Source: an uncultured delta proteobacterium (GTDB lineage Bacteria > Desulfobacterota > Binatia > Binatales > Binataceae). Taken from it: a stretch of 64,000 nt of DNA. The notes under the pieces were generated by a model. The model was not told the DNA's origin, ran no database searches, and was given only the letters and a program-made list of their open reading frames with translations. This document shows, one piece after another, positions 42,536 to 56,653 of this stretch. Within the stretch, counting starts at the first letter, position 1; every line of letters begins with the position of its first letter. The stretch is from positions 256,001 through 320,000 of the forward strand of contig CAWJET010000002.1 in assembly GCA_963842085.1 (NCBI GenBank), in the 5' to 3' direction. The position numbers and the translations under genes are program-made.

Positions 42536-43897
42536 ATGGCGGACACAGAAAAGAATTCATCGCGCCACGTGATTGCCGTGGTTGGAGCCGCGACGGCGGG
42601 CTCGGAAATCGCGCGGATCCTGGCGGAGCATGGCGTGCTGGTGATCGTGTTCGAGCAGAATTCGCGTCCTTACGGAAAAATCGAAGACGGCTTGCCGCGA
42701 TGGCACGTCAAGCAGCGCCTGGATGAGTACGAGGAAATCAACAAGCGCCTCGATCATCCGAACGTCGAATACGTGCCGATGACGCGGATGGGGCGCGAGC
42801 TCGATTTCGAAGACCTGCGGACTGCGTGGGGGCTCAGTGCAATCGTGCTGACGCACGGCGCATGGCGGGATCGTCCGTTTCCGGTCGAGGGCGCCGACCA
42901 GTTCATCGATCGCGGCCTCGTCTACCAGAACAAGCTGATCTACTGGTTCAATCACTACCCGCAAAAGAACTACGACGGCCCGCGCTATGAGCTGACTCCG
43001 GGAACCATCGTCGTGGGCGGCGGACTCGCGTCGATCGACGTGGTCAAGGTCCTGCAAATCGAGACGACGCTCGCGGCGCTTACGGCGCGCGGCATCGCCA
43101 GCGACATGCTCGCGCTCGAGCGCGAGGGAATCGAGCCAGTGCTGAATGCGAGCGGGCTGAAGTACGCCGACCTCGGCGTCGCACCCTGCAAGCTGTACTA
43201 TCGCCGCCGCGTGCTCGACATGCCGCTGTCGGACATTCCCGCCGACGCGCCGGCCAAGCGCGCCGACGCGCTCAGGCAGGCGCGCGCGAAGATCCTGGAG
43301 AAGGCGCAGCGCAAGTTCCTATTCGAGTTCCAGGAATTGCGTGCGCCGAGCGGGTTGCTCGTAGAGAACGCCTTGATGGTCGGGGTGAACTTCAGCCGCA
43401 CGGAGGTCGCCGACGGGCAGGTGCGCGTCGTCCAGGCGGGTGTGGAGTCCGCGCGCGCGAAGCTGACGATAAGCTCGATCGGGAGCATCCCGGAACCAAT
43501 TCCCGGCATCCCGCAGAAGGGCGAGGTTTATACTTACGTCGATCAGAAGATCGGCCTGCTGATGGATGGTCCGACCGCGGTGTTTGCGGCCGGCAACGTG
43601 CTGACGGGCAAGGGCAATATCAAGGACTCGCTCGAAAGCGGCACCGAGATTGGAACGCTGGTGGCCGAGGCGTACCTGGGATTGTCGGATGAGAAATTGA
43701 ATATCGCGGAGGGCGCGCGCCAAGCAGCAGCGGCCGCGGGCGAGAAGATTGCGGGCGCAATGAGCGTGCGGCAAAAAATCGCGCCGGATCACGTGGTGAG
43801 ACTGATCGGGCACGTGCACAAACGCCAGCGTGCGGTCGGTTACGACGGCAACTATCGCGCATGGATCGCGAAGGTCACGCCGCCCGACTTGCGCTAG
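42536..43897 (+). CDS. FAD/NAD(P) oxidoreductase, ferredoxin-NADP reductase (AdR/FprA)-like
   Basis: VVGAATAG, PYGKIEDG.P..H, VVGGGLASIDV, YRRR, SIG. Confidence 0.7.
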   Translation: MADTEKNSSRHVIAVVGAATAGSEIARILAEHGVLVIVFEQNSRPYGKIEDGLPRWHVKQRLDEYEEINKRLDHPNVEYVPMTRMGRELDFEDLRTAWGLSAIVLTHGAWRDRPFPVEGADQFIDRGLVYQNKLIYWFNHYPQKNYDGPRYELTPGTIVVGGGLASIDVVKVLQIETTLAALTARGIASDMLALEREGIEPVLNASGLKYADLGVAPCKLYYRRRVLDMPLSDIPADAPAKRADALRQARAKILEKAQRKFLFEFQELRAPSGLLVENALMVGVNFSRTEVADGQVRVVQAGVESARAKLTISSIGSIPEPIPGIPQKGEVYTYVDQKIGLLMDGPTAVFAAGNVLTGKGNIKDSLESGTEIGTLVAEAYLGLSDEKLNIAEGARQAAAAAGEKIAGAMSVRQKIAPDHVVRLIGHVHKRQRAVGYDGNYRAWIAKVTPPDLR

Positions 43898-44006
43898 AAT
43901 TTTCGCGCGCGGCCCGGCGCCTGCTTCATCCCGACTTCTTCTTCGAGTTTTGCCTCGTTGCGTTCGCGACTATAGGCTCATCGGATGACGGCAAAGGAGG
44001 TGCGGT

Positions 44007-45254
44007 GTGGACGAACTCAAGCGAACTGACCCGGAAATTTATCAGCTCATCAAGGAAGAAGAGCGGTACGAGATCGATTCGGTCCGGCTGATCGCGTCGG
44101 AGAATTACGTTTCCAAGGCCGTGCTGGAGGCGACCGGCTCGATTCTCACCAACAAATATTCCGAAGGCTATCCGGGACGCCGCTACTACGAGGGTCAGCG
44201 CAACATCGATCAGATCGAAGAGCTGGCGGTAGCGCGCGCGCGGGCGCTGTTCAAAGTCGATCACGCAAACGTCCAGCCGTACTCGGGCTCGCCGGCGAAT
44301 CTCGCAGTCTATTTCGGGCTGCTCAAGCCGGGCGACACGATCATGGGCCTGGCGCTGCCGCACGGCGGGCATCTGACGCACGGATGGCCGGTGAGCATCA
44401 CGGGCACTTTCTGGCGTTCCGCGCAGTACGTGGTGGATCGCGAGAGTCACGTCGTGGACTTCGACCAGGTCCGCGCGATGGCGCGCAAGGAGCGGCCGAA
44501 AATCATCGTGACCGGGGGCACGGCGTATCCGCGGCTGTGGGACTTCAAGAGTTTCAGCGAGGTCGCCAAGGAAGTCGGCGCGTTGCTGCTCGCCGACATT
44601 TCGCATGTCGCGGGACTGATCGTTGGCGGCGTGCATCCGGATCCCGCGCCCTACGCCGACGTGATTACGACCACCACCCACAAGACGCTGCGCGGTCCGC
44701 GCGGTGCGATGATCATGTGCCGCAACGAATACGCCGAGGCGATCGACAAGGCAGTTTTTCCCGGCTTGCAGGGCGGTCCGCACAATCATACGACGGCGGC
44801 GATCGCGGTGGCGCTGAAGGAAGCATCGACGCCGGAGTTCAAGACGTACGCAAAAAAAGTAGTGAGCAACGCCAAGACGCTCGCCGACGAATTGCTCGCG
44901 CGCGGATTCAGCCTGGTCTCGGGCGGCACCGACAATCATCTGATCCTGGTCGATTTGACGAACAAGAAAGTGATCGCCAAGAAAGGCGCGAAGGCGCTCG
45001 ACGCGGCCGGCATCGTTTGCAACTACAACACCGTCCCGTACGATCCGCGCAAGCCGTTCAGCCCGAGCGGGCTTCGCCTCGGCACGCCGGCAGTAACCTC
45101 GCGCGGAATGGGTGACGCCGAGATGCGGCAGATCGCGAAGTTCATGGACGAGGCGATCGCGCACGCGGGCGACGAGGCGGCGCTGCGGCGCATCGCAGCC
45201 GCCGTCACCGAGATGTGCCGCAGCTTCCCCGCGCCGGGAATTGCGATCAATTAG
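44007..45254 (+). CDS. glyA: Serine hydroxymethyltransferase
   Basis: LIASEN, NKYSEGYPG.RYY, GGHLTHG, TTTHKTLRGPRG, FPGLQGGP, GGTDNHL. Confidence 0.96.
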   Translation: MDELKRTDPEIYQLIKEEERYEIDSVRLIASENYVSKAVLEATGSILTNKYSEGYPGRRYYEGQRNIDQIEELAVARARALFKVDHANVQPYSGSPANLAVYFGLLKPGDTIMGLALPHGGHLTHGWPVSITGTFWRSAQYVVDRESHVVDFDQVRAMARKERPKIIVTGGTAYPRLWDFKSFSEVAKEVGALLLADISHVAGLIVGGVHPDPAPYADVITTTTHKTLRGPRGAMIMCRNEYAEAIDKAVFPGLQGGPHNHTTAAIAVALKEASTPEFKTYAKKVVSNAKTLADELLARGFSLVSGGTDNHLILVDLTNKKVIAKKGAKALDAAGIVCNYNTVPYDPRKPFSPSGLRLGTPAVTSRGMGDAEMRQIAKFMDEAIAHAGDEAALRRIAAAVTEMCRSFPAPGIAIN

Positions 45255-45271
45255 CCGGCAACCTCGAATAC

Positions 45272-45302
45272 GTGTTATCAGTGGGTGCAGGGGTCACCCC
45301 TG
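45272..45302 (-). repeat. Dispersed double-hairpin element, partial copy D (second hairpin, inverted)
   Basis: Reverse complement CAGGGGTGACCCCTGCACCCACTGATAACAC matches copy C CAGAGGTGACCCCTGCACCCAGTGTTAGGAC. Confidence 0.7.
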
Positions 45303-45304
45303 TC

Positions 45305-46387
45305 ATGGCAAAAATAAAAGTTGAACGTGGCCTTAATCTTGGGACCCCGTACACGCCTGACATGCAGGATGGCGGGAAACGCCCCGAGCCGACGTGGAGC
45401 ACGATTCGCGACCAGGTGCGCGAGGCCGATGCGCTCGGATACGACACGATTGTCGCGGTGGAAACGCAGCACGACCCGTATCTTGAACTCGCAGTGGCGG
45501 CGCAGGAACCGTCGAAGGTCGAGCTGGCGACCGGGATCGCGCTTGCATTCACCAAGAGTCCGGTCGCGACCGCGTACACCGCCTGGGATTTGCAACGCAT
45601 GAGTGGCGGGCGGCTGGTGCTCGGACTCGGCTCGCAGGTCAAAGGCCACGTGATGCGACGCTTCGGGATGCCGTGGTCGAAGCCCGCGCAGCGGATGAAG
45701 GACTACGTCGGTGCGATGCGCGCGTGCTGGCGCACCTGGCAGACTCGCGAGCCGTTCAACTTTCAGAGCGAGCACTACAATCTCTCGCTGATGACGCCGA
45801 ACTTCGCGCCACCGCCGCAGTCGAATCCGAATATCCCGGTGCTGATCGCCGCGGTGCAGGAGCGGATGCTGCAAGTCGCGGGTGAAGTGTGCGAGGGCGT
45901 GCGACTGCACGGGATCGTCACGCGTAAATATCTCGATCAGATCGCGTTCCCGAATCTGAAGAAGGGCTTCGACAAGTCCGGCAAGCGCGCTGCGGAATGG
46001 AGCAATTTTCAGATTGGCGGCGGCGGCTTTCTATGCGCCGGAAAAGACCGGGACTCGCTCGCGCGTGCGGTCAGCGGAATGAAATCGACGATCGCGTTTT
46101 ACGGCTCGACGCGCTCGTATCGTTCCAGCTTTGAAATAGACGGATGGGGCGACGCGGCCGACCAGTTGCACAAATTATCCGTGCAACAGAAGTGGCCCGA
46201 GATGGCAAAGCTGGTGACCGACGAGATGGTGCACGCGTTCGCGGCGGTCGGAACCTATGACGAGATCGCGGGAGTGATGAAGAAGCGCTTTGCCGGGGTG
46301 AACCGGCTCTCGTTCGACATGCCGGTGAAGAACGATCACGATCGCGGCGTGCTTAAAGAGATCATCCAGGACCTGCGGCGGCAGTAG
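45305..46387 (+). CDS. LLM-class, probably F420-dependent oxidoreductase (TIGR03617-like)
   Basis: ETQHDP, TGIALAF..SP, AWDLQ.MSGGR..LGLGSQVKGH, IAFYGST..Y; cofD/cofE lie in the window. Confidence 0.85.
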   Translation: MAKIKVERGLNLGTPYTPDMQDGGKRPEPTWSTIRDQVREADALGYDTIVAVETQHDPYLELAVAAQEPSKVELATGIALAFTKSPVATAYTAWDLQRMSGGRLVLGLGSQVKGHVMRRFGMPWSKPAQRMKDYVGAMRACWRTWQTREPFNFQSEHYNLSLMTPNFAPPPQSNPNIPVLIAAVQERMLQVAGEVCEGVRLHGIVTRKYLDQIAFPNLKKGFDKSGKRAAEWSNFQIGGGGFLCAGKDRDSLARAVSGMKSTIAFYGSTRSYRSSFEIDGWGDAADQLHKLSVQQKWPEMAKLVTDEMVHAFAAVGTYDEIAGVMKKRFAGVNRLSFDMPVKNDHDRGVLKEIIQDLRRQ

Positions 46388-46393
46388 CCGAGT

Positions 46394-47095
46394 TCATGCG
46401 AGCGGCGGGTTGATGTCGGACCAGAGGCGGCGCATCAACTCGATATGAGTCTCGACGGCCCATAGCGTCTCGGCCGCGGCGCTCTCGGGTATCGCGCGGA
46501 AGATCGAACCGGCGCTCGAGTCGCCGTGATCCTTGTCAACCTTGACGTGAACGCTGAAGAACAGCAGCGCGTCGTCGGAGAGCTGGTAGTGGCGGCGGAG
46601 TCCGTCGATCACGCGGACGTAGGCGTCGGGGTTGAAAAGCTCGGAGCCGAGGCTGATCCCGGCGAGCGTGACGTACCACGGTTTCGACTCGGCCAGCCAG
46701 TACATCCAATGCATCATCGCGGTCGCGTCGGCGGTCATGCGGGCGTTCAGCAATTGTGCGCGCGAGATTCCGATCGCCTCGCCGAATTCGAGGTAGAGTT
46801 CGGGATGCGATCGATTGGCGCCGGAGACGCGGCCGAGTTCCTCTTCGATTAGATTTTCGACGATCGCTTTGCGCGCTGGGAAATCGTCGCATTTCGCATA
46901 GATGAGGCCGAGGATGTTGGCGTTGTGCGCCTTGTTACCGATGAAGAGTTGCGTTGCCCAATGGCGAAGCTGGGGCATCGACAATTCGCCGCGCTCAATC
47001 TTCTCGATGGTCGGGTGCGAGCGCAGCGTGCGATTGTTGCGCTCGAGTTTTTCGATCAAGGTTTTCAGCTGGCGCGTTCCTTTTTCGACATCCAT
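46394..47095 (-). CDS. Heme-oxygenase-like diiron oxidase (HDO; CADD/PqqC/TenA fold)
   Basis: NLIEEELG..SHPELY, GSE and FFSVHVKVDKDH give the E/H/E/H-x3-D-x2-H ligand set. Confidence 0.82.
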   Translation of the reverse strand: MDVEKGTRQLKTLIEKLERNNRTLRSHPTIEKIERGELSMPQLRHWATQLFIGNKAHNANILGLIYAKCDDFPARKAIVENLIEEELGRVSGANRSHPELYLEFGEAIGISRAQLLNARMTADATAMMHWMYWLAESKPWYVTLAGISLGSELFNPDAYVRVIDGLRRHYQLSDDALLFFSVHVKVDKDHGDSSAGSIFRAIPESAAAETLWAVETHIELMRRLWSDINPPLA

Positions 47096-47097
47096 GA

Positions 47098-48762
47098 TCA
47101 AGTTCCTCGTGGCGCGGCCGGTCCGGAAGCCAACGGGACGCGTTCAGCGGCGAGTTTGCCGGCAATCTCGCGGCGCAGCTCCGCTTTCCTGATCTTGCCG
47201 ACGTTGGTAAGCGGCAGTTCGCGCAGGATTTCGATTCGTTCGGGCCATTTGAATTGCGAGACGCCGCGGGCCGCAAGAAATTCGCGCACCGCGGAGAGCG
47301 CCAGAGTCTCTCCATCACGCAGAGATAAGTAGGCGCACACCTTTTCACCGAGAACGGGATCGGGCATTGCCACTACCGCGGCCACGCTGACCGCAGGATG
47401 CGCGATCAAGTGCGCTTCGATTTCCTCGGCGTTGATCTTCTCGCCGCCGCGATTGATCAGGTCCTTGATTCTTCCCTCGACGACGAGATTTCCGGACGGA
47501 CCGAGCCGCACCAGGTCACCAGTGCGGTAGAATCCGTCGGGAGTAAACGCCTCGCGGTTGCGTTCCGGCGCGCGGAAGTAGCCACGAATCGTGTACGGGC
47601 CGCGGCACCATAATTCGCCGACCGCACCGGTCGCCACCTCTGTTCCGTCAGTATCGACGATCCGGATCTCGTCGGCCGGTGAAAGTGGGCGGCCTTGTGT
47701 CGTGAATGCGACGTCGTCGCGTTCGTCCAGGCGCGTGTAGCACAACAATCCTTCAGACATGCCGAGCACCTGCTGTACGACGAGATGCGGGAAGGCGCTC
47801 TTGAGAGCGCGTGCGGCCGGCTCCTGGAGCCGTTGACCGCCAACCGTGATGACGCGCAGCGAGGCAAAACTGGCGCGTGAAGAGTGCGGGAGATCGAGGA
47901 TTGCGATTGCAACCGCCGGAACGCATGGCAGGTGAGTAATCCGTTCACGCTCGATTATGCTCGCGAGCTCCTCGGCCTTGGTGGATTGACTGAAGAACGT
48001 GCGCCCGCCGGTGAGCAGCGCGCCGAGCAATCCGGGGCATGCCAGGGGAAAGTTGTGCTCGGCGGGAAGCGCAATCAGGATGCGCGATTCGGATGTGAGG
48101 CCCGATGCGGCGGCGGACTCGCGCGCGTTATACAAATAATCCGCGTGAGTGCGCGGTATGAGCTTCGGCATTCCGGTGGTACCGCCGGAAAGCAGGAACA
48201 ATGCAACGTCGAATGGATCGCCGGCCGATGAACCAATGGCGCGCGACGAACCGTCATCCGCACGCAGCCGGACGCATCCATCAGCCGGAGCCGTCGAAAG
48301 AATGGACTTCAGAACCGGTAACCGACTTTTGAGTTCGCGCGCGAGCGCGACGTGATCGAAGCCGCGATACTCGGGTGCGATCGCGATCGCCTTGGCGTCC
48401 GAGAACGACACCAGATACTCGAGTTCGGCTCTGCGAAAGGCCGGCAGCGCCATCACGGGAAGCGCGCCGATTTCAAGACATGCGATAGTCAACGCCGCGA
48501 ATTCGATGCCATTTGGTAGTTGAATAACGACGCGATCGTTGCGCGCGATTCCGCAGCTGGAAAGGAGGGCCGCGAGCCGTCCCGCTTCACCGAGAAGTTG
48601 CGAGTAGGTGAGACTTCCAGTCGCGTCGCCGACTGCGGTTGAGTCGGGGCGCTCGCACGCAGTCCTGGCGATAGCCTGGGGGATGGTTTCGCCGCGCCAG
48701 ACTCCCGCGCGAACGTATCGCTCGGCAAAGTCTGCGGGGAATGGTGTACATCCTTCGAGCAT
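47098..48762 (-). CDS. Aryl-acid adenylating enzyme, EntE/PchD-like (salicylate-type signature)
   Basis: LSGGTTGMPKLIPRTH, HNFPLACPG, QQVLGMSEGLLCYTR, RGPYTIRGYF, GFYRTGD, TNVGKI. Confidence 0.88.
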   Translation of the reverse strand: MLEGCTPFPADFAERYVRAGVWRGETIPQAIARTACERPDSTAVGDATGSLTYSQLLGEAGRLAALLSSCGIARNDRVVIQLPNGIEFAALTIACLEIGALPVMALPAFRRAELEYLVSFSDAKAIAIAPEYRGFDHVALARELKSRLPVLKSILSTAPADGCVRLRADDGSSRAIGSSAGDPFDVALFLLSGGTTGMPKLIPRTHADYLYNARESAAASGLTSESRILIALPAEHNFPLACPGLLGALLTGGRTFFSQSTKAEELASIIERERITHLPCVPAVAIAILDLPHSSRASFASLRVITVGGQRLQEPAARALKSAFPHLVVQQVLGMSEGLLCYTRLDERDDVAFTTQGRPLSPADEIRIVDTDGTEVATGAVGELWCRGPYTIRGYFRAPERNREAFTPDGFYRTGDLVRLGPSGNLVVEGRIKDLINRGGEKINAEEIEAHLIAHPAVSVAAVVAMPDPVLGEKVCAYLSLRDGETLALSAVREFLAARGVSQFKWPERIEILRELPLTNVGKIRKAELRREIAGKLAAERVPLASGPAAPRGT

Positions 48763-48789
48763 TGTCGTGGTGCGGCGGCGTCCGTCGGC

Positions 48790-49452
48790 TCAGCGGACCG
48801 TCAGAGTCCCCGCAATCATGCGGAAACATTCGTCCATTATGCGGCCGCGCTGCTCGTAATCGCGCGCCGGCTCGTACCAGGTATAAAACCAGTTCATCGC
48901 ACCGAACAGCAGCGAAGTGAGGATTCGCGCCTGCTCGCGGTCCAGGGTCTTGTTGCGATGCGCGGCGTAGCCTTCGAGCAATCGGCGGCAGATACGGGAG
49001 TACTCGCGCTTGAGCCGCGTGATGTCGGCGGCGTAGCGGCCGGTCAGCGAGTCAGCCTCGCGCACCAGTACCTTCATCTCGGCGAGATTGCCCATGTGGT
49101 ATTCGAGATGACTTCGGATGAAGAGCCGCAGGCGCTCTTCGGGATCGTCGGTCTCCGACATTCGCGATTCCGCGAGCGAGACCAGCTGTTCGAACGCGCG
49201 CCGCGAGATGAGGTAGAGCAGCTCTTCCTTGTTGCGGAGGTAGTAGTAGATGCGTGGAAAGGAAATTCGTGCGCGCGCGGCGATGTCGCGAATGGACGCG
49301 AGGCCGAAACTCTTCTCGGCAAAGACGGCGGCAGCGGAGCGTAAAATGTGATCGATGTTTGCATCGTAGCGCTCGTCGGGCGCCATCGCGCGCGCGGCCG
49401 GCTTGATTCGCGCGACCCGCCGAGGCGCTCCATCGAGATTCGACTTCTTCAA
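48790..49452 (-). CDS. TetR-family regulator (PaaR/KstR2-like C-terminal domain)
   Basis: HTH SIRDIAARA...YYYLRNKEELL; C-terminal FGAMNWFYTWY. Confidence 0.88.
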   Translation of the reverse strand: MKKSNLDGAPRRVARIKPAARAMAPDERYDANIDHILRSAAAVFAEKSFGLASIRDIAARARISFPRIYYYLRNKEELLYLISRRAFEQLVSLAESRMSETDDPEERLRLFIRSHLEYHMGNLAEMKVLVREADSLTGRYAADITRLKREYSRICRRLLEGYAAHRNKTLDREQARILTSLLFGAMNWFYTWYEPARDYEQRGRIMDECFRMIAGTLTVR

Positions 49453-49461
49453 TTCATCACC

Positions 49462-50202
49462 TCAACTGAAACGGCGGCCAGCCGCCGGATCGGGAATGGG
49501 AATCTCGAGCTTGGTCAGCAGATTGTTGACCTCGGCGGTGAATTCATCGCGCATCTGCCCGTTGCTGCGGCGTCGCAGGCCCCATCGAACATAATCGAAC
49601 TGCCGCCTGGATCCCGATTTTCCGAACATATCGAGCCCCGCGGGGTACCACTTTGCCAGATGCTTGATCAACAGGTCGCGTCCGCGATCACCCTCACGCT
49701 GCAGGTACCTCCGGATCAGCCGATAGCCGAAGGCCGCATGGCCGAGCTCCTCTTTATGCACGCGCTCTGCGATTCGCGCGAGCGGCTCGTAGCTGCACCC
49801 GACCCACTCGTATCCCATATAGGCCCCTTGCCGGTCGGCGAAGAAACTGAAGAGGCCATATTCGAGCCAGTCCACGGCTTCGTCGCGCATTTCGAAAATG
49901 TAGATCGGCATTGGCGACGCCATGAACTTGCTGTCAACCTGGACGCCGAGATCGTCGAGCAGCTTCATCCAATAGCTCGCGTGGCGAACTTCGTCGGACC
50001 AGAACGCCGCGTACTCGGCCTTGTCCTCAGCGGTAGGCGCCAGCGCGAGCGGCTTCAGGAGCGTGCGTTCAGGAGCGAGCATGTATTCGGACTCGATGCG
50101 CGATTGGATCGACAGCATCCGGATTAGAAGATCCCGGTACTCGGCGGGAAGGCCGTCAGGTCCCGGGAAGTGGAGCTCGCTCGCGGGTGATGTGTTGCTC
50201 AT
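49462..50202 (-). CDS. PaaA/BoxB-like ferritin-fold aryl-CoA epoxidase homolog
   Basis: RIESEY, DEVRH, FADRQG, SYEPLAR, KEELGH, WYPAGLDMFG, WGLRRRSNGQMR. Confidence 0.82.
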   Translation of the reverse strand: MSNTSPASELHFPGPDGLPAEYRDLLIRMLSIQSRIESEYMLAPERTLLKPLALAPTAEDKAEYAAFWSDEVRHASYWMKLLDDLGVQVDSKFMASPMPIYIFEMRDEAVDWLEYGLFSFFADRQGAYMGYEWVGCSYEPLARIAERVHKEELGHAAFGYRLIRRYLQREGDRGRDLLIKHLAKWYPAGLDMFGKSGSRRQFDYVRWGLRRRSNGQMRDEFTAEVNNLLTKLEIPIPDPAAGRRFS

Positions 50203-50229
50203 TCGATTGTTCCGGTCCTGTCCTGGTGT

Positions 50230-50247
50230 TCTGAACGATAGTTCAGA
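50230..50247. promoter_or_regulatory. Candidate TetR operator TCTGAAC-GATA-GTTCAGA
   Basis: Perfect 7-bp arms about 30 nt upstream of the paaA-like start. Confidence 0.55.
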
Positions 50248-50268
50248 TACCATCGCGACCACCGGCGG

Positions 50269-51027
50269 TCAACCCGCCATGGTCAGGCCGCCGCTCACGC
50301 TGAGCACCTGGCCGGTGACAAAGTCGGAATCGGAACTCGCGAAGAATGCGACGGCGCCCGCCACGTCGGCCGGTTGCCCGAGGCGGCGAAAAGGGATGCC
50401 ACGCGCCATCGCTTCGAGAACTTTCTCGCGTCCCGCCATCGCGCTCTTGAGCAGCGCGGTGTCGGTTGGTCCGGGGCACACGACGTTGACGTTGATGTGG
50501 TTTGCCGCCAGCTCGCGCGCCAGCGTTTTCGAGAAACCGATGATAGCGGCTTTGCATCCCGCGTAGACCGCTTCGCCGCTCGAGCCAACGCGCGCGGCAT
50601 CGGAAGAGATCGAGATGATTTTGCCGGTACCGCGCGATTGCATCCGGGGCGCAATGGCTTTGCAGCAGTTGAGCATGCCGCGATAGTTGATCGCGATTAC
50701 TTTGTCCCAGAAGTCGGGAGTGCTCTCGACAAATGGCATAACGATGTCCCATCCGGCATTGTTCACCAGGATGTCGATTGGCCCGAGTTCGCGCTCGACG
50801 CGATCAGCCGCCGCGATTGCATCGTCAATTCTGGTGACGTCAAGCGCGACCGCGATCGCGGATTTACCGTGGCCGCGAATTTCCGCCGCTGCGCGCTCGG
50901 CGGAATCGTGCTGGATATCTGCCATCGCCACCTTGGCGCCCTCGTCGGCCAGGCGCGACGCGATCGCGCACCCGATTCCCTGGGCGGCGCCGGTCACGAT
51001 TGCGACTTTTCCGGTCAGGCGGGACAT
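50269..51027 (-). CDS. SDR, 2-hydroxycyclohexanecarboxyl-CoA dehydrogenase (BadH)-like
   Basis: TGAAQGIG, NNAGWD, SDAARVGSSGEAVYAGCK, CPGPTDT, SVSGGLTM. Confidence 0.8.
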   Translation of the reverse strand: MSRLTGKVAIVTGAAQGIGCAIASRLADEGAKVAMADIQHDSAERAAAEIRGHGKSAIAVALDVTRIDDAIAAADRVERELGPIDILVNNAGWDIVMPFVESTPDFWDKVIAINYRGMLNCCKAIAPRMQSRGTGKIISISSDAARVGSSGEAVYAGCKAAIIGFSKTLARELAANHINVNVVCPGPTDTALLKSAMAGREKVLEAMARGIPFRRLGQPADVAGAVAFFASSDSDFVTGQVLSVSGGLTMAG

Positions 51028-51036
51028 GGCGATCCT

Positions 51037-51792
51037 TCAACTCGCGATCCAACCGCCGTCGATAATGAATGGCGCTCCGGTTGCGAAGGGCGCCTCGTCG
51101 CTGGCGAGGAACAGCGCGGTGTGCGCGATTTCGTCGGCGCTGCCGACGCGGCCCAGCACCGAGCTGCGCTGGATGAACTTCGGCTGCAATCCCTCGGGCC
51201 CGGTGATTCGATCCACCATCGGGGTGTGGATTACTCCCGGGCAGATGCAGTTGACGCGAACGTTATAGCGCCCGTACTCGAGCGCCGCGACCCGTGTCAG
51301 CGAAATCACGCCGGCTTTGGCCGCGCAGTATGCGCTCGCGCCCTTGAGCCCGACGATTCCCGCGACTGACGCGGTGTTGATCACGGCGCCGCCGCTGCGT
51401 TCGACGATCCTGGGCAGTCCGTATTTCATTCCGAGCCATACGCCGCGCAGGTTGATTGCTATCACGCGGTCGAATGCCTCTTCGCTGAGCTGCGCGAGGA
51501 AGCCCGACTCGCCTTCGATTCCCGCGTTGTTGTAGAGCACGTCGAGCCCGCCGAACGCGCGGACTGTCTCCTCGACCATCGCGCGCGCATCCTCCGAGTC
51601 GGACACGTCGGCGCGCAACGAGATCGCTTCGCCGCCGGCCGCTTTGATCATCCGCGCGGTCTCGGCCGCGGACGTCTCCGTTACGTCGATCGCCGCGACT
51701 TTTGCGCCTTCGCGTGCGAACAACACGGAGGCCGCTCGTCCCATTCCAGAGCCAGCGCCGGTGATCAGCGCAACTTTTCCCTGAAGTCTCAT
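51037..51792 (-). CDS. SDR family oxidoreductase
   Basis: TGAGSGMG, YNNAGI, YCAAK, RVNCICPG, IDGG. Confidence 0.9.
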   Translation of the reverse strand: MRLQGKVALITGAGSGMGRAASVLFAREGAKVAAIDVTETSAAETARMIKAAGGEAISLRADVSDSEDARAMVEETVRAFGGLDVLYNNAGIEGESGFLAQLSEEAFDRVIAINLRGVWLGMKYGLPRIVERSGGAVINTASVAGIVGLKGASAYCAAKAGVISLTRVAALEYGRYNVRVNCICPGVIHTPMVDRITGPEGLQPKFIQRSSVLGRVGSADEIAHTALFLASDEAPFATGAPFIIDGGWIAS

Positions 51793-52799: not shown

Positions 52800-55700
52800 T
52801 TAACGAAAATCGTGCGAGGGCGGGACCGTGCCGGGAATCTTAATCTCCTCGAAGCGCCGCGCGCGAATCGCGGTCACGCCGTCGACCCTTTGCAGTACGC
52901 CCTCGGCCAGCAGGATTCCGGCGCTGCGCAGCAGCAGGCGATGTTTCTGAAACAAGTCGGGCGTGACGATCAGGTTGGCGATTCCGGTTTCGTCCTCTAG
53001 CGTGATGAACAGAAAGCCCTTGGCCGTGCCGGGGCGTTGGCGCACGATTACGACGCCGGCGGTCTTCACCCACGACTGATGATTGGCGCGCGTGAGCGCG
53101 TCGGCGCTCAGGATTCCGCGCGCGGTCAAATCTCCGCGCAGATAGGTCATCAGATGAGGCCCCGTCGTGAGGCCGGTCGCCGCGTAATCTGCGAGCGTCT
53201 CATCGATCGGCGCCATCGTTGCCAGCGGAACTTCACCATCGCGCGGCCTCACACCCGCCAGCAGACTCTTTGGATCACGCTCGACGGCGGCCGCATTCCA
53301 CATCGCGTCGCGCCGCGCCAGGCCGAAGGATGCGAACGCGCCTGCGTAGGCAAGCGCATCGAGCTCGCGCCGGTTCGGTCCGACGCGCGCGGTGAGATCG
53401 GCAATCGAATCGAACTGTCGCCGCGCGCGCTCGCTTTCGATTTGAAGTCCGACTTCCTCGCGCAGGCCGGTGACGTATCGCAGTCCCATGCGCGTCGCGG
53501 GATGGCCATCAATAACTTCGATGATGCATTTCCAGCTCGAGCGGGTCACGTCGATTGGCAGCACGACGACAGCGTGACGCGCGGCATCTTTCACCAGCGT
53601 CGAGGGATGGTAGAAGCCGAGCGGGTAGCAATTCAGCATCGCGGCCAGGAACGCCGCCGGATGATGGTACTTCAGGTACGCCGACGCGTACGCGATCAGC
53701 GCGAAGCTCGCGGCGTGCGATTCGGGGAATCCATACAGCGCAAACGACGTGATCGAGCGCACGATGTCGTCGGCGACGTTGCCTTGCAGGCCGTTGCGCA
53801 ACATCCCGGCGCGCAGCCGCGCTTCGATTTTCTCCATCCGCTCGGCAGAGCGCTTGAATCCCATCGCGCGGCGCAGTTCCTCGGCCTCGCCGCCGCTGAA
53901 TCCCGCCACCGTCATCGCCATTCGCAACAACTGCTCCTGGAAAAGCGGGACGCCGAGCGTGCGCTTCAGGATCGGCTCGAGCGAAGGATGCGGATACTCG
54001 ACGGGCGCGCGACCGTTGCGGCGATCGAGATAGGGATGCACCATTTTGCCGACGATGGGGCCGGGGCGGATGATCGCGACCTCGACCACCAAATCGTAAA
54101 ATCGCTCCGGCTTCATCCGCGGCAGCGTCGCCATCTGCGCGCGGCTCTCGACCTGGAAAACGCCGACGGTATCGGCGCGCCGCAGCATCGCATACACGCC
54201 GGGATCGTCGGGCGGAATATGCGCGAGATCGATTTCGACGCCCTCGTGCGCTCGGATCATCGGAATCGCCTCTTTCAGCGCGGCCAGCATCCCGAGTCCG
54301 AGCAGATCGATCTTGATTATGCCAAGATCGGCGCAGTCGTCCTTGTCCCATTGAATCACCACGCGGCCGGGCATCGAGGCCGGCTCGAGCGGCACGATTT
54401 CGTCGAGCGGCTGCGCGGCGATCACCATGCCGCCGCTATGCTGCCCGAGATGGCGCGGCACGCTCTGAATCTTGCGCACCAGCTCGACCAGCATCCTGAT
54501 TCGCGGCGCTTCCGCATCGACGCCGCCGCGCTTGAGCAGCGACACGAGATCGTCATGATGGTCGCGGAACTCGTACACCTGGTTGAGCTTGGCCAGCCGG
54601 TCAACCTGTTCGGGCGAAAAGCCGAGGGTCTTGCCGACTTCGCGCACCGCGCTTTTGGTGCGATAGGTGATCACGTTCGCGGTCATCGCGGCCCCACGTT
54701 CGCCGTAGCGGCGATAAACGTATTGAATCGCCATCTCGCGATCGTCGCCGCTGGGCAGATCAAGATCGATGTCGGGCCATTCGCCGCGCTCTTCGGAAAG
54801 AAAGCGCTCGAACAGGAGTTCCATCTTGACCGCGTCCACCGCCGTGATCCCGAGCGCATAGCACACCGCGCTGTTGGCCGCGGAGCCGCGTCCCTGCACC
54901 ATGATCCGATTTTCGCGGCAGAACTGGACAATGTCCCATACGATCAGGAAGTAGCCGGCGAGCTTGAGCCGCTCGATGACCGCGAGCTCATGTTCGAGCT
55001 GGCGGTGCGTGCGAGCGTCGATCGCGCCGCGCCATCGCTCTCTCGCGCCGGCATAGGTGAGAACCCGCAAATAGCTGTCGGGCGTTTCTCCCGGTGGGAG
55101 CGGATAGTCGGGAAAGCGATAGCCCATGTCGCAGAGCTGGAAAGCGCATCGCTCGGCTATCGCGCGCGAGGTGGCGACGGCGCCGGGCAGCTCGCGAAAC
55201 AGCGCGGCCATCTCAGCCGGCGATTTCAGATGGCGCTGGCTGTTGATCCAGAGCGCGCGGCCGGCTTCCTCGAGCGTGGTCTTGAGCCGGATGCAGGTCA
55301 GCACGTCGAGCAATTTGCGATCCGAGCCGCCGTGGCATACGTCGTTGGTCGCGACCACCGGGATTCGCGCCGCGCCCGCAAGCGCTGCGAACTTGCGGTT
55401 AAGGCGCTCCTCGCCGGCGTCGAGATGCCGCTGCAAATCGATGTAGAAATTTCCCGCGCCGAAAATCCTCTCGAGCCGCCGGCTCAGCTCGACGGGATCC
55501 TCGCCGCGAACGAGCATGCGTGACAGCGGGCTCATCGCGCCGCCGGCAAGGCAGATGAGTCCGCGGCCGTAGCGTTCGAGTTCGTCCAGCGTAATGTGGC
55601 TCTCGCCTTTCGCGGGATAAACCGGCGGAGCAACAGAGCCGTCGCGTGCGAGCGCGCCGGGATTCAGGACGCGCATCTTCGCGTCGGTGATCATGCGGCA

Positions 55701-55970
55701 GAGATTCTGGTAGCGCTGGCGATCGGGCACGAGGACGTAGAGCCGCGAGTCGTCGTCCAGCGTCAGTTCCGCGCCCACGATTTGCCGGATTCCCGCGGCC
55801 TTCGCGGCCTGATAAAAGCGCGGTGCGCCGTAAAGTCCGTCGCGATCGCCAAGCGCCATCGCGCCATAGCCAAGTTCGGCCGCGCGCGCCGCGAGATCCT
55901 CGGGCGTACTCGCACCTTCAAGAAAGCTGAACGCGCTGCGCGCGCGCAGCTCGATGTAATCGGAGTTCAT
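52800..55970 (-). CDS. dnaE2: Error-prone DNA polymerase DnaE2 (ImuC)
   Basis: SAFSFLEGAS, QGRGSAANSAVCY, PDIDLD, YGFPESHAASFA, RQRPGTAKG, C-terminal SHDFR. Confidence 0.95.
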   Translation of the reverse strand: MNSDYIELRARSAFSFLEGASTPEDLAARAAELGYGAMALGDRDGLYGAPRFYQAAKAAGIRQIVGAELTLDDDSRLYVLVPDRQRYQNLCRMITDAKMRVLNPGALARDGSVAPPVYPAKGESHITLDELERYGRGLICLAGGAMSPLSRMLVRGEDPVELSRRLERIFGAGNFYIDLQRHLDAGEERLNRKFAALAGAARIPVVATNDVCHGGSDRKLLDVLTCIRLKTTLEEAGRALWINSQRHLKSPAEMAALFRELPGAVATSRAIAERCAFQLCDMGYRFPDYPLPPGETPDSYLRVLTYAGARERWRGAIDARTHRQLEHELAVIERLKLAGYFLIVWDIVQFCRENRIMVQGRGSAANSAVCYALGITAVDAVKMELLFERFLSEERGEWPDIDLDLPSGDDREMAIQYVYRRYGERGAAMTANVITYRTKSAVREVGKTLGFSPEQVDRLAKLNQVYEFRDHHDDLVSLLKRGGVDAEAPRIRMLVELVRKIQSVPRHLGQHSGGMVIAAQPLDEIVPLEPASMPGRVVIQWDKDDCADLGIIKIDLLGLGMLAALKEAIPMIRAHEGVEIDLAHIPPDDPGVYAMLRRADTVGVFQVESRAQMATLPRMKPERFYDLVVEVAIIRPGPIVGKMVHPYLDRRNGRAPVEYPHPSLEPILKRTLGVPLFQEQLLRMAMTVAGFSGGEAEELRRAMGFKRSAERMEKIEARLRAGMLRNGLQGNVADDIVRSITSFALYGFPESHAASFALIAYASAYLKYHHPAAFLAAMLNCYPLGFYHPSTLVKDAARHAVVVLPIDVTRSSWKCIIEVIDGHPATRMGLRYVTGLREEVGLQIESERARRQFDSIADLTARVGPNRRELDALAYAGAFASFGLARRDAMWNAAAVERDPKSLLAGVRPRDGEVPLATMAPIDETLADYAATGLTTGPHLMTYLRGDLTARGILSADALTRANHQSWVKTAGVVIVRQRPGTAKGFLFITLEDETGIANLIVTPDLFQKHRLLLRSAGILLAEGVLQRVDGVTAIRARRFEEIKIPGTVPPSHDFR

Positions 55971-56013
55971 GCTGATGCGTTCGAGGCAACGCCCTTATCG
56001 ATCAGCCTGGGTA

Positions 56014-56310
56014 TTATTTGCCTGAGTGGTGAGCGCGTCCTTGGCCTGAGCGAGGTGCTTTTCGCGGCCGGAGTGATGCTTCGAGGGTCTGCCGGATGTA
56101 GCGCTGGTACGGGATACCGCGGCGATGCGCGACGGCACGGACCGCGTTCAGGAGTTCTTCAGAGATTCGAAGATTGACCGACTTTTGTTTGGGCCTGAAC
56201 TCGAACTGAAATGGCGCGAAGTTTTCGGCGCTGATGTAGTCGGACAAATCCTGGTCAAGGAAGTTTTCCGCTTCCCTATCGGTTTTGAACACGGGCAATT
56301 TCTTGTTCAT
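56014..56310 (-). CDS. BrnA/CopG-like antitoxin
   Basis: KKLPVFKTDREAENF, VNLRIS, GIPYQRYIR. Confidence 0.82.
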   Translation of the reverse strand: MNKKLPVFKTDREAENFLDQDLSDYISAENFAPFQFEFRPKQKSVNLRISEELLNAVRAVAHRRGIPYQRYIRQTLEASLRPRKAPRSGQGRAHHSGK

Positions 56311-56596
56311 ATTTTTTAATCTCCTTCCTATGCATGTAGCGTGCGCTTATGGGCCGTATGAAGATTCCGCCGCGTGTTTGCCTCGGCGTGAAAACGACAA
56401 AGGCGTATCGCCCTTCTTCCGTCCGCCCGATCGCCAAAAAACGCGGCTCCGCGCGCGAATTCTTGAGGTCGGGCACAATCAGGGTCGCCGCGTGAACGAG
56501 AACGTGCTCCACTTCAGCGACCGAAACGCCATGTTTCTGACACTTCGAGCGGTTGGCGTTGTCCCATGCAAATCCTGAAAAAGTGACCTTCTGCAT
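56276..56596 (-). CDS. BrnT-family toxin
   Basis: GFAWDNANRSKCQKHGVS..E, EPRFLAIG, IRPISARYMH.KE. Confidence 0.88.
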   Translation of the reverse strand: MQKVTFSGFAWDNANRSKCQKHGVSVAEVEHVLVHAATLIVPDLKNSRAEPRFLAIGRTEEGRYAFVVFTPRQTRGGIFIRPISARYMHRKEIKKYEQEIARVQNR

Positions 56597-56608
56597 CCGT
56601 TGGTCTCA

Positions 56609-56628
56609 GTGTAGGCTAATGCCTATAC
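56609..56628. promoter_or_regulatory. Near-palindrome GTGTAGGC-TAAT-GCCTATAC; candidate BrnTA operator
   Basis: Inverted repeat just upstream of the brnT start. Confidence 0.45.
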
Positions 56629-56653
56629 AAATGCCAATGCACCTTGGCGACAA

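Follow-up and report, generated by a model that had tools for sequence, protein, structure and literature searches.

The locus lies in a 64-kb stretch of DNA (hereafter the window) from a complete Binataceae genome, whose host is an uncultured soil bacterium. An earlier note on this sequence described six co-oriented genes, and the corresponding minus-strand ORFs are indeed present at the positions given in Table 1, with their families assigned by profile matches. When the longest ORFs are considered, the gaps from SDR1 to the ligase gene measure 9, 6, 9 and 27 nt, and the last 4 nt of the ligase gene are also the first 4 nt of the HDO gene. In 39 of 57 orthologous loci all six genes are retained with unchanged order and orientation; of the other 18 loci, 11 are found on contigs that break off inside the cluster. 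All co-occurrence counts are drawn from one bacterial family and are non-independent. Literature searches retrieved no description of this operon.

Table 1. Features of the locus (positions within the window)
Feature	Position	Strand	Basis or remark
SDR1, classical SDR oxidoreductase, 251 aa	51037..51792	-	PF13561 and PF00106 matches
SDR2, BadH-like SDR, 252 aa	50269..51027	-	Best NCBIfam match TIGR03206
18-bp palindrome TCTGAAC-N4-GTTCAGA, candidate TetR operator	50230..50247	.	Kept across orthologous loci
Stand-alone PaaA-like diiron oxygenase (predicted), 266 aa by longest ORF	49462..50262	-	PF05138
TetR-family regulator, TetR_C_24 ligand domain	48790..49452	-	PF00440 and PF17932 matches
DhbE-family aryl-acid adenylating enzyme, predicted salicylate-type aryl-CoA ligase, 554 aa	47098..48762	-	PF00501 and PF13193
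CADD-like heme-oxygenase-like dimetal oxidase (HDO), 235 aa	46394..47101	-	PF14518

The PaaA-like protein matches PF05138 with 73.4 bits and probably starts at Met21 (ATG 50202), which gives 246 aa and widens the gap to SDR2 from 6 to 66 nt. Its orthologs align only from residues 17-21 onward, and the pLDDT of its model is below 50 over residues 1-23. Its assignment in the earlier note holds, as the diiron motifs E91/H94 and E172/H175 are fully conserved across all 24 aligned relatives and the predicted structure (pLDDT 89.3) retains the PaaA fold, PaaA chains being the top matches (TM 0.70-0.76). It also stands alone, as had been claimed: neither paaB nor a PaaC partner was found in the genome, which contains only two PF05138 genes and in which no second PaaA/PaaC pair was detected. 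Membership in the BoxB system of the genome was rejected because the genuine BoxB is a separate, full-length 497-aa protein on the other contig (C1:2855711-2857108; 831.8 bits vs a cut-off of 499.1). Modelled as a homodimer, the protein scores 0.76 vs 0.17 for the best of three controls, with 100% contact agreement between runs and a partner pLDDT of at least 85. Of 30 proteins solved as one-chain pairs, 20 attain the pass mark, as does 1 of 23 solved single chains; these counts are only approximate here, given the use of a custom-made alignment. The model suggests that a homodimer probably replaces the PaaA-PaaC pair; the pass may itself mirror a likeness to the solved PaaA-PaaC pair, a similar complex.

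The ligase, with a median identity of 72% the least conserved of the six proteins, scores 537.8 bits against TIGR02275 (cut-off 723.55). The idea that it is of the salicylate type is borne out by its best solved relative, the salicylate-AMP ligase 5wm2 (E 3.7e-153), and by the pocket motifs HNFPLACPG and GM[AS]EGLLCY, which are common to most orthologs; we take HNFPLACPG plus GLLCY to be the salicylate code. The pocket varies between lineages, as would be expected of a module adapted to different acids. Whether such an enzyme loads CoA or a carrier cannot be read from its sequence. No carrier protein is present in or near the locus, in agreement with the earlier note, and the nearest of nine PP-binding matches in the genome is about 100 kb away. 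Not one of the nine has a neighbouring Cy or starter C domain that would serve an aryl cap, and neither an aryl carrier (ArCP) nor an aryl-capped or Cy-type NRPS was found in the genome. The sole NRPS/PKS cluster opens with its own fatty-acyl-AMP ligase (FAAL) and ACP and is interrupted by an IS1595 transposase, which makes a distant aryl carrier an unlikely target. Isochorismate synthase and salicylate synthase were not found in the genome either, and the acid thus does not arise from chorismate by the usual route.

The genes for the DhbE-like ligase and the stand-alone PaaA-like protein recur as a pair. Their co-occurrence, which the earlier note proposed to check, is seen as adjacent genes in three divergent Binataceae lineages. 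Both genes are present in 52 of the 57 loci of the window lineage. A second lineage, genus g262, has a cluster composed of a TetR, a ligase (44-47% identical to that of the window), a PaaA-like protein (59-68%) and a [2Fe-2S] ferredoxin, for which the PaaE ferredoxin domain is the top NCBIfam hit; ligase and PaaA-like genes are direct neighbours in 7 of 7 genomes. The order in the third lineage is ligase (45-50%), a 95-aa four-cysteine protein and a PaaA-like protein (32-35%), and here adjacency is observed in 12 of 14 genomes. A small redox protein thus joins the pair in two lineages; no homolog of either was found in the genome studied here. Outside the family, one of four loci in Chloroflexota has the two genes side by side, and the ligase was not found within the DNA examined at the other three PaaA-like loci. 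Since the PaaA-like protein of the third lineage forms a separate long branch, the pairing with a ligase may have arisen more than once.

The window has a single copy of the palindrome, placed 28 nt ahead of the probable start of the PaaA-like gene. Already singled out in the earlier note, it is found immediately in front of this gene at 54 of the 57 orthologous loci (40 exact matches, 13 with one mismatch and one with two), and the 4-nt spacer varies between loci while the arms are kept. A TetR gene is present in 56 of these loci. The single locus without it (L054) also lacks the palindrome, and the two others devoid of the palindrome (L048 and L057) encode the most divergent TetRs and carry a related GAAC-N4-GTT core instead. 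As judged from this pattern, the palindrome is probably the operator of the operon's own TetR, and its position upstream of the PaaA-like gene implies that the regulated unit would consist of the PaaA-like, TetR, ligase and HDO genes. Solved relatives of the regulator include the fatty-acid/acyl-CoA regulators FadR and KstR2 (E 1e-7 to 1e-5), and E values reach 7e-17 with uncharacterised solved TetRs. Its TetR_C_24 domain was counted as CoA context, together with the BadH-like character of SDR2, the MaoC-type dehydratases encoded beside the genome's own PaaA-like paralog, and the enoyl-CoA hydratases and the ligase Ccb2 described below.

The remaining genes are tied less uniformly to the pair. 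SDR1 (47 of 57 loci, median identity 94%) has cyclohexanol dehydrogenase, (3R)-hydroxyacyl-CoA dehydrogenase and BbsD among its nearest solved relatives. Those of SDR2 (50 of 57 loci) are FabG and (3R)-hydroxyacyl-CoA dehydrogenase, and its score against the 2-hydroxycyclohexanecarboxyl-CoA dehydrogenase model TIGR03206 (311.5 bits) is below the cut-off of 431.2. Of 79 HDO-bearing genomes, 75 also encode a DhbE-like ligase, the four exceptions being at most 82% complete; conversely, the ligase is present and the HDO absent in 22 genomes. In genus g262 the HDO belongs to an SDR-SDR-TetR-ZIP-HDO cluster (ZIP being a transporter), with the ligase and PaaA-like genes elsewhere, and in at least three further genomes (G522, G545 and G499) it is found next to unrelated genes. 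The proposal that the HDO and the SDRs share the substrate of the pair therefore stands only in part: in the window lineage the HDO gene lies behind the palindrome and overlaps the ligase gene, but in other genera HDO and pair are apart. From these gene neighbourhoods, the HDO and the two SDRs may act on a different substrate.

To our reading of the sequence, the operon looks like an undescribed variant of the oxygen-dependent, CoA-linked processing of aromatic acids of the paa/box type. We would put at about an even chance the more specific proposal of a TetR-controlled operon by which an ortho-substituted (salicylate-type) aromatic acid is processed in an O2-dependent, CoA-linked manner. The DhbE-like enzyme would adenylate the acid and pass it to CoA, after which the diiron centre of the PaaA-like protein would epoxidise or hydroxylate the aryl-CoA ring with O2, taking electrons from a ferredoxin encoded outside this locus. 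The two SDRs could then oxidise the hydroxylated or de-aromatised CoA ester, an intermediate that the HDO might oxidise further. The TetR would sit on the palindrome upstream of the PaaA-like gene until released by the aryl-CoA or the acid, switching on the PaaA-like, TetR, ligase and HDO genes. The operon contains no genes for a ferredoxin/reductase, hydrolase, thiolase, enoyl-CoA hydratase, ring-cleavage enzyme or transporter, and hence a complete degradation route is not visible. Gentisate 1,2-dioxygenase was not found in the genome, so that the known route from salicylyl-CoA to gentisate is unavailable.

The lack of ring-cleavage, hydrolase, thiolase and transporter genes would also suit a small biosynthetic cluster, in which the aryl acid ends up in a cofactor precursor or in a metabolite that is secreted or used for signalling, rather than serving as a carbon source, with the HDO performing an unusual oxidation of the sort known for HDOs in natural-product pathways. 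A 2026 mini-review on HDOs covers natural-product biosynthesis, and a word search of its main text finds no 'CoA' (PMC13108848). Moreover, the pair of the third lineage is located near genes for KAS, KASIII, an alpha/beta-hydrolase and a luciferase-like oxidoreductase. However, the locus is devoid of a carrier protein, NRPS, PKS, transferase or exporter, the genome offers no route from chorismate to salicylate, and regulation by an acyl-CoA-sensing kind of TetR through a conserved candidate operator would be more usual for an inducible catabolic operon. In addition, PaaA-like proteins at a greater distance (33-39% identical, from Betaproteobacteria and Rokubacteria) have enoyl-CoA hydratases and ABC uptake genes on their flanks. 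We regard a biosynthetic role as unlikely, albeit as the strongest of the competing explanations.

Slightly less credit is due to the possibility that the HDO is a CADD-like synthase of 4-aminobenzoate or of another essential benzenoid, which by chance ends an aryl-CoA operon. The protein (98 bits against PF14518; 233 aa if it starts at Met3) has its closest solved relatives among the CADD-type 4-aminobenzoate synthases (E 2e-11 to 1e-9), its model (pLDDT 89.4) has CADD as top fold (TM 0.80-0.88), and it is among the best-conserved products of the locus (median identity 93%), in addition to being away from the pair in other genera. The genome encodes dihydropteroate synthase, lacks PabB and has a single chorismate-binding gene, which is TrpE (578.7 bits vs a cut-off of 517.7). 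Exactly one such gene is present in 35 of 35 HDO-bearing genomes of the genus, compared with two or three in 10 of the 12 HDO-less ones; the additional ones of G204 encode a PabA-PabB fusion and, beside MenD, an isochorismate synthase. This distribution may nevertheless be a lineage effect, because the genus divides along the same line in genome size, BoxB and the second HDO. Genome G489 holds the operon plus an extra chorismate-binding gene, and the complementary pattern breaks down outside the genus, where 13 of 13 g2 genomes lack such an HDO yet possess a single chorismate-binding gene. Furthermore, the equivalent of CADD Tyr27, whose sacrificial role is confirmed in PMC9522330, is Ile32, and that of Lys152 is Val. 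Against TIGR04305 (cut-off 200) the HDO reaches 89.4 bits, less than the second HDO of the same genome (133.1 bits), and in the window lineage it overlaps the ligase gene and sits behind the candidate operator.

That the six genes are mere neighbours by inherited synteny, without a common pathway, is improbable. The flanking genes (dnaE2, SHMT and an F420-dependent oxidoreductase) are as syntenic across the family as the cluster, and the HDO and SDRs part from the pair in some genera, but the spacing is tight with one overlapping gene pair, the candidate operator ahead of four genes is conserved, and the ligase/PaaA-like pairing recurs independently with other gene orders and partners. Least probable of all is that the ligase, amid unrelated neighbours, acts as an aryl-AMP ligase of the siderophore type and charges an aryl carrier encoded elsewhere: this would agree with DhbE/EntE family membership (TIGR02275) and with nearest solved relatives that load carrier proteins, yet is opposed by the below-cut-off score, the lack of an aryl-capping partner or an isochorismate/salicylate synthase in the genome, and the pairing with a PaaA-like gene in three lineages.

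The proposed CoA-linked processing of an aromatic acid can be compared with several known systems. The catalytic subunit of the phenylacetyl-CoA 1,2-epoxidase PaaABCDE of E. coli and Pseudomonas shares the fold and the two ExxH diiron motifs of the PaaA-like protein. Its substrate is an aromatic CoA thioester supplied by a dedicated ligase, as would be the putative CoA ester here, and, in the g262 lineage only, a PaaE-like [2Fe-2S] ferredoxin adjoins the PaaA-like gene. In contrast, the PaaA-like protein scores 80.6 bits against TIGR02156 (cut-off 280), has Phe aligned with PaaA Lys68 (numbering inferred from the title of PDB 4ii4) and, as a probable homodimer in the models, lacks paaB, a PaaC partner, paaD and paaE at the locus; the ligase is of the DhbE rather than the PaaK type. 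BoxAB, the benzoyl-CoA 2,3-epoxidase of the aerobic box pathway, likewise combines a diiron aryl-CoA ring oxygenase with a CoA ligase, and this system is common in the Binataceae (124 of 165 genomes). However, the PaaA-like protein scores only 24.9 bits against TIGR03225 (cut-off 499.1), the locus has no BoxC-type crotonase, the true BoxB is encoded apart from it, and the operon occurs without BoxB in six genomes (G408, G445, G446, G448, G455 and G456).

The sdg pathway of Streptomyces (salicylate to salicylyl-CoA, gentisyl-CoA and gentisate) relies on DhbE-like activation and hydroxylation of the CoA ester, as proposed here. Its hydroxylase SdgC is a flavin enzyme and not a diiron protein, and no such gene exists at this locus; the sdg route is not known to include an HDO or an SDR pair. 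It is listed as one of three known salicylate routes in a 2026 paper (PMC13215587).

The best match of the HDO in both sequence and fold is to the self-sacrificing 4-aminobenzoate synthases CADD and NE1434 of the HDO superfamily. It keeps the Glu of the EEE motif, His99, Glu154, His185, Asp189 and His192, positions aligned with the metal ligands of CADD, but its gene is found in a predicted aryl-CoA operon and not among folate genes. Finally, Ccb2 of celesticetin biosynthesis feeds the acyltransferase of an antibiotic cluster, a difference from the present operon; by its description in PMC5416915 it nonetheless resembles the ligase, being a DhbE/salicylate-AMP-ligase-like enzyme and a proven salicylyl-CoA ligase that forms its product in vitro without a carrier protein.

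Profile matches confirm that the six minus-strand open reading frames belong to the families named by the earlier note: two classical SDRs (SDR1 and SDR2), a PaaA_PaaC protein, a TetR regulator with a TetR_C_24 domain, an adenylating enzyme of the DhbE family and a heme-oxygenase-like dimetal oxidase (HDO). The genome that carries them (G000) is complete, with 4.93 Mb on two contigs (C1 and C2), the window being C2:256001-320000, and its nearest relatives are MAGs that bear the label Candidatus Binatus or Binataceae. The neighbours on both sides of the operon have no relation to aromatic chemistry. The upstream side holds a metal-resistance-like gene together with a 1056-aa ORF and a Y-family polymerase gene; the latter two look like an imuB-dnaE2 mutagenesis cassette, in which the 1056-aa ORF is named by its size, neighbours and synteny. 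Downstream, the genes for a GltD-like protein, SHMT and an F420-dependent LLM oxidoreductase (365 bits, cut-off 278) keep their synteny with the operon in most orthologous loci. A consensus scan of the operon region revealed no sigma-70-like promoter. The nine sequencing runs listed for the 5.8-kb stretch come from three studies and are all of soil metagenome DNA, none of RNA; one of them may be the source sample.

Features of the locus, of its genome (G000) and of related genomes; positions without a prefix are those of the window, and L numbers denote extracted loci
Feature	Location	Strand	Remark
Six-gene operon	46394-51792	minus	5' to 3': SDR1, SDR2, PaaA-like, TetR, ligase, HDO
Palindrome (candidate operator)	50230-50247		TCTGAAC-N4-GTTCAGA
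GltD-like NAD(P)-binding protein, SHMT, TIGR03617 F420-dependent LLM oxidoreductase	42536-46387	plus	downstream, convergent with operon
1056-aa ORF	52800-55970	minus	upstream of operon
Y-family polymerase gene	56654-58378	minus	IMS domains
Stretch resembling an imuB-dnaE2 cassette	52800-58378	minus
FolP present, TrpE only	G000 C2:215091-215852, C2:751015-751755
MenB/BadI-like crotonase	G000 C2:1536285		348 bits
Second CADD-like HDO	G000:C1:1158222-1158908 (L093:1378-2067)		229 aa
Sole NRPS/PKS	G000:C1:2137001-2156000 (L107)
PaaA_PaaC paralog	G000:C1:2637225-2638916 (L108:9225-10916)		252 aa
BoxB	G000:C1:2855711-2857108		831.8 bits
ZIP-family metal transporter gene of genus g262 (G466)	L095:9129-9851		directly upstream of HDO
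Lineage-3 small protein	L101:8953-9240, L102:8464-8748, L106:9421-9708		94-95 aa
Broken chorismate-binding gene	G434:C32:316041-316745 (L126)		in-frame TGA

The earlier note had named co-occurrence elsewhere as a test, and the genes do travel together. With the PaaA-like protein as query, 185,579 species genomes yielded 60 loci, 57 of them of the window's lineage. All six genes are present in the same order and on the same strand in 39 of these 57, and in 11 of the remaining 18 the contig ends inside the cluster. Since the flanking genes are equally syntenic, this conservation alone is no proof of a functional link. The genes also evolve at different rates: the ligase is the fastest (median identity 72%), HDO and SDR1 the slowest (93% and 94%).

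The robust core of the locus is the pair formed by the ligase and PaaA-like genes, which recurs in three lineages among 165 Binataceae genomes and additional fetched loci (family-wide counts include seven genomes flagged as unpublished: G415, G416, G497, G553, G558, G559 and G560). Lineage 1 is the window type. In lineage 2, from the genus g262, the gene order is TetR, ligase, PaaA-like and a [2Fe-2S] ferredoxin, which among NCBIfam models matches the PaaE ferredoxin domain best, and the pair is adjacent in all seven genomes. Lineage 3, from several other genera, places a 95-aa CxxC...CxC protein between the ligase and the PaaA-like protein, with the pair adjacent in 12 of 14 genomes. Outside the family, one Chloroflexota locus encodes a PaaA-like protein, a protein of 164 aa and a ligase; no ligase occurs within the DNA examined at three further PaaA-like loci of this phylum. 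In the tree, lineages 1 and 2 group with the Chloroflexota (support 100/100) and lineage 3 forms a separate long branch. More distant PaaA-like relatives (33-39% identical) in Betaproteobacteria and Rokubacteria lie between two enoyl-CoA hydratase genes, beside ABC uptake genes, and the hydratase neighbours point to CoA-ester substrates. None of the candidate electron carriers (the lineage-2 ferredoxin, the lineage-3 four-cysteine protein, the Chloroflexota 164-aa protein) has a homolog in the window's genome by tblastn at E <= 0.001. The lineage-3 protein itself is conserved and matches no Pfam or NCBIfam family; it could represent a novel small electron carrier or a metal chaperone.

The PaaA-like protein scores well below the curated cut-offs of PaaA (TIGR02156, 80.6 bits against 280) and BoxB (TIGR03225, 24.9 against 499.1), and nevertheless carries the diiron motifs on a ferritin-like PaaA fold. 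All 24 aligned relatives share E91/H94 and E172/H175, at least 90% also share D143, and the ExxH motifs align with those of 3pvr and 4iit. The nearest fold to its model (pLDDT 89.3) is PaaA (TM 0.70-0.76), followed by SSO1313, BoxB and PaaC. The family is small, with 330 cluster representatives at E <= 0.001 among 1.84 billion. Modelling suggests that the oxygenase is probably a homodimer, with a score of 0.76 against 0.17 for the best of three controls, 100% agreement in contacts between runs and a partner pLDDT of at least 85. Of 30 proteins solved as same-chain pairs, 20 reach the pass mark, as does one of 23 solved as single chains; these counts hold only roughly since the analysis used its own alignment. 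Because PaaA and PaaC form a comparable complex in their solved structure, the pass shows likeness and is no proof of binding.

The possibility that this protein is a subunit of a canonical paa or box system encoded elsewhere can be set aside, since the genome has no match to PaaB (PF06243), contains only two PF05138 genes and encodes a genuine BoxB on the other contig, which is a full, separate oxygenase of the self-sufficient type. The second PF05138 gene, which immediately follows two genes for MaoC/hotdog dehydratase subunits, encodes another stand-alone diiron protein in a CoA-ester setting.

The third element of the locus is the regulator, which matches PF17932 (TetR_C_24) with 72.7 bits. 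A palindrome, TCTGAAC-N4-GTTCAGA, occurs once in the window and lies directly upstream of the PaaA-like gene in 54 of the 57 loci, with fixed arms and a variable spacer. It is read as the putative TetR operator. A TetR_C_24 domain together with a palindrome beside the regulated genes is the arrangement of acyl-CoA-responsive regulators of the FadR, PaaR and KstR2 type. One locus (L054) has neither TetR nor palindrome, and the two with the most divergent TetRs (L048 and L057) retain only a GAAC-N4-GTT core. The palindrome falls within the longest ORF of the PaaA-like gene; however, ortholog matches and model confidence both begin near residue 21, so that the true start is probably ATG 50202. 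With this start behind the operator, the regulated unit would comprise the PaaA-like, TetR, ligase and HDO genes; both SDR genes lie upstream of it.

The ligase matches the DhbE/EntE family TIGR02275 with 537.8 bits, under the cut-off of 723.55, and its best solved relative is the salicylate-AMP ligase 5wm2 (E 3.7e-153). In the printed alignment its pocket motifs are HNFPLACPG and GMSEGLLCY versus HNFALACPG and GMAEGLLNY in 5wm2. We take Phe, Cys and Leu in place of DhbE Tyr236, Ser240 and Val329 to be the salicylate pocket code, with which the ligase motifs agree, and HNF..ACPG plus GLL.Y presumably mark activation of salicylate rather than 2,3-dihydroxybenzoate. The predicted aryl-CoA ligase would transfer the acyl group to CoA, as its context suggests: a PaaA-like partner, a regulator with a TetR_C_24 domain and the BadH-like SDR2. 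The last is closest to BadH, the 2-hydroxycyclohexanecarboxyl-CoA dehydrogenase (TIGR03206, 311.5 bits, under the cut-off of 431.2).

That the ligase might only load a distant aryl carrier protein, as in a siderophore-type pathway, was an alternative allowed by the earlier note. It is unlikely here: no aryl carrier is encoded at the locus, the nine PP-binding matches in the genome all lie away from it, and no NRPS has an aryl-accepting start, the sole NRPS/PKS (FAAL, ACP-KS, AT-DH-KR-ACP, C ... TE) beginning with FAAL and ACP. Moreover, such a pathway would lack its supply, because TrpE is the genome's only chorismate-binding gene and neither an isochorismate synthase nor a salicylate synthase is encoded. 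Loading of CoA without a carrier has a precedent in Ccb2, a DhbE-like enzyme described, in the accessible part of the source, as a true salicylyl-CoA ligase (PMC5416915). The NRPS/PKS cluster is probably inactive, its condensation domain being split by an IS1595-family transposase.

The HDO belongs to the module less firmly than the pair. Its membership of the superfamily is clear: it matches PF14518 with 98 bits (cut-off 28.9), its model (pLDDT 89.4) has the seven-helix heme-oxygenase-like fold, nearest to CADD (TM 0.80-0.88), and the aligned three-His/three-carboxylate metal-ligand positions are conserved. However, it stays under the cut-off of the CADD-type 4-aminobenzoate synthases (TIGR04305, 89.4 bits against 200), and in a high-confidence stretch of the alignment CADD Tyr27 is replaced by Ile32 and Lys152 by Val. 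At least 90% of 21 aligned relatives share Ile32. In CADD, Tyr27 is the sacrificial residue, according to the available portion of the report (PMC9522330). The clade is confined to Binataceae: among full-length relatives identity falls from at least 71% straight to at most 34%, the sole match at 49% (P0241) having a scrambled middle in the alignment and looking frameshifted. A search of the ESM Atlas returned only generic TENA/PqqC-type clusters.

Several observations favour a place for the HDO in the module. Its gene overlaps the ligase stop codon and sits behind the candidate operator, a DhbE-like ligase of some lineage is found in 75 of 79 HDO genomes (the four exceptions are at most 82% complete), and in g262 the pair is missing from the ancestral locus, with a second copy of the pair elsewhere in the genome. 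On the other hand, the g262 locus reads SDR-SDR-TetR-ZIP transporter-HDO, the HDO adjoins an ABC ATPase, an MFS transporter and an amidophosphoribosyltransferase-type gene in G522, G545 and G499, and 22 genomes have the ligase without the HDO. The ZIP-family gene of g262 stands at the ligase's place. A second CADD-like HDO in the window's genome adjoins a DsbD-like membrane protein, scores 133 bits with TIGR04305 (below the same cut-off) and has Trp at the CADD Tyr27 position; it occurs in 74 of the 165 family genomes, largely those bearing the operon, and in none of ten g262 genomes.

A different function was considered for the operon or its HDO, namely a chorismate-independent route to an essential benzenoid, either 4-aminobenzoate for folate or a quinone head group. 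Within the genus, exactly one chorismate-binding gene is present in all 35 HDO genomes and two or three in 10 of 12 genomes without the HDO, so that the operon hardly ever coexists with the classical pabAB and menFD genes. In G204, for example, the extra genes are a PabA-PabB fusion and an isochorismate synthase adjoining MenD, with MenB and a UbiA-type gene a few kb away on the same contig. The window's genome has dihydropteroate synthase (FolP) and TrpE as its only chorismate-binding gene; it lacks PabB, isochorismate synthase and any futalosine gene of the MqnA/MqnD type, and the classical MenB of the G204 and G423 type was not found in it. However, in another genus, g2, a single chorismate-binding gene goes with the absence of such an HDO in all 13 genomes, and G489 carries the operon together with an extra chorismate-binding gene. 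Because the pattern fails outside the genus, and because BoxB, the second HDO and genome size divide the genus in the same way, it is treated as a lineage effect, with a minority chance that it carries real meaning beyond that. The route itself we consider improbable; if true, a CADD-like enzyme devoid of the sacrificial tyrosine would act catalytically on a small molecule from an aryl-CoA pathway. One of the two CADD-like HDOs may still supply 4-aminobenzoate. The genome G434, in which a chorismate-binding gene is broken, the second HDO is present and the operon is absent, may represent a stage on the way to losing the classical pathway.

Two further partners were rejected. BoxB, the marker of the aerobic benzoyl-CoA pathway, is present in 124 of the 165 Binataceae genomes and, within the genus, in 34 of 35 genomes with the HDO and in none of 12 without it; however, it is common where the operon is absent (11 of 13 g2 genomes), and six genomes have the operon without BoxB. 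The MenB/BadI-like crotonase of the window's genome is absent from the operon-bearing G421 and G437.

The earlier note had proposed that a 2-substituted benzoate is activated to its CoA ester, attacked by the PaaA-like enzyme and processed by the HDO and SDRs. The part of this proposal that stands is the module itself: ligase, stand-alone PaaA-like oxygenase and TetR with its candidate operator form a well-supported functional unit, given the recurrence of the pair in separate lineages and the placement of the palindrome. The roles of both SDRs and of the HDO, as well as the substrate and the chemistry, are what we infer beyond it. Since the pocket motifs of the paired siderophore-type ligases differ between the lineages, the oxygenase may reach ortho-substituted benzoates. 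A role of the HDO in this pathway, if real, would make it the first member of the superfamily tied to CoA-ester or catabolic chemistry; the main text of a 2026 mini-review on HDOs makes no mention of CoA (PMC13108848). All parts are small soluble proteins, so that the proposal is directly testable by expression and assay.

Among known systems, PaaABCDE, BoxAB and the Streptomyces salicylyl-CoA (sdg) route come closest. The proteins of the operon reach none of the curated cut-offs of the PaaA, BoxB, DhbE/EntE, CADD and BadH families, and the defining partners are absent: PaaABC(D)E is a complex encoded together, whereas the PaaA-like locus is devoid of PaaB, and the complete genome has no match to the gentisate 1,2-dioxygenase (TIGR02272) expected of an sdg-type route. 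Three salicylate routes (sdgC, nagGH and nahG), none of the operon's type, are given in the accessible part of a 2026 account (PMC13215587). A literature search, supplementary files excepted, found no description of this gene combination, its related results being the sdg route and unrelated work. The PaaA-like family occurs in abundant, uncultured soil and peat bacteria. To our knowledge, paa and box are the two described systems of aerobic CoA-dependent ("hybrid") aromatic catabolism, and each relies on a diiron oxygenase of several subunits; a PaaA-like oxygenase that stands alone, probably as a homodimer, would constitute a third, simpler form of this chemistry.
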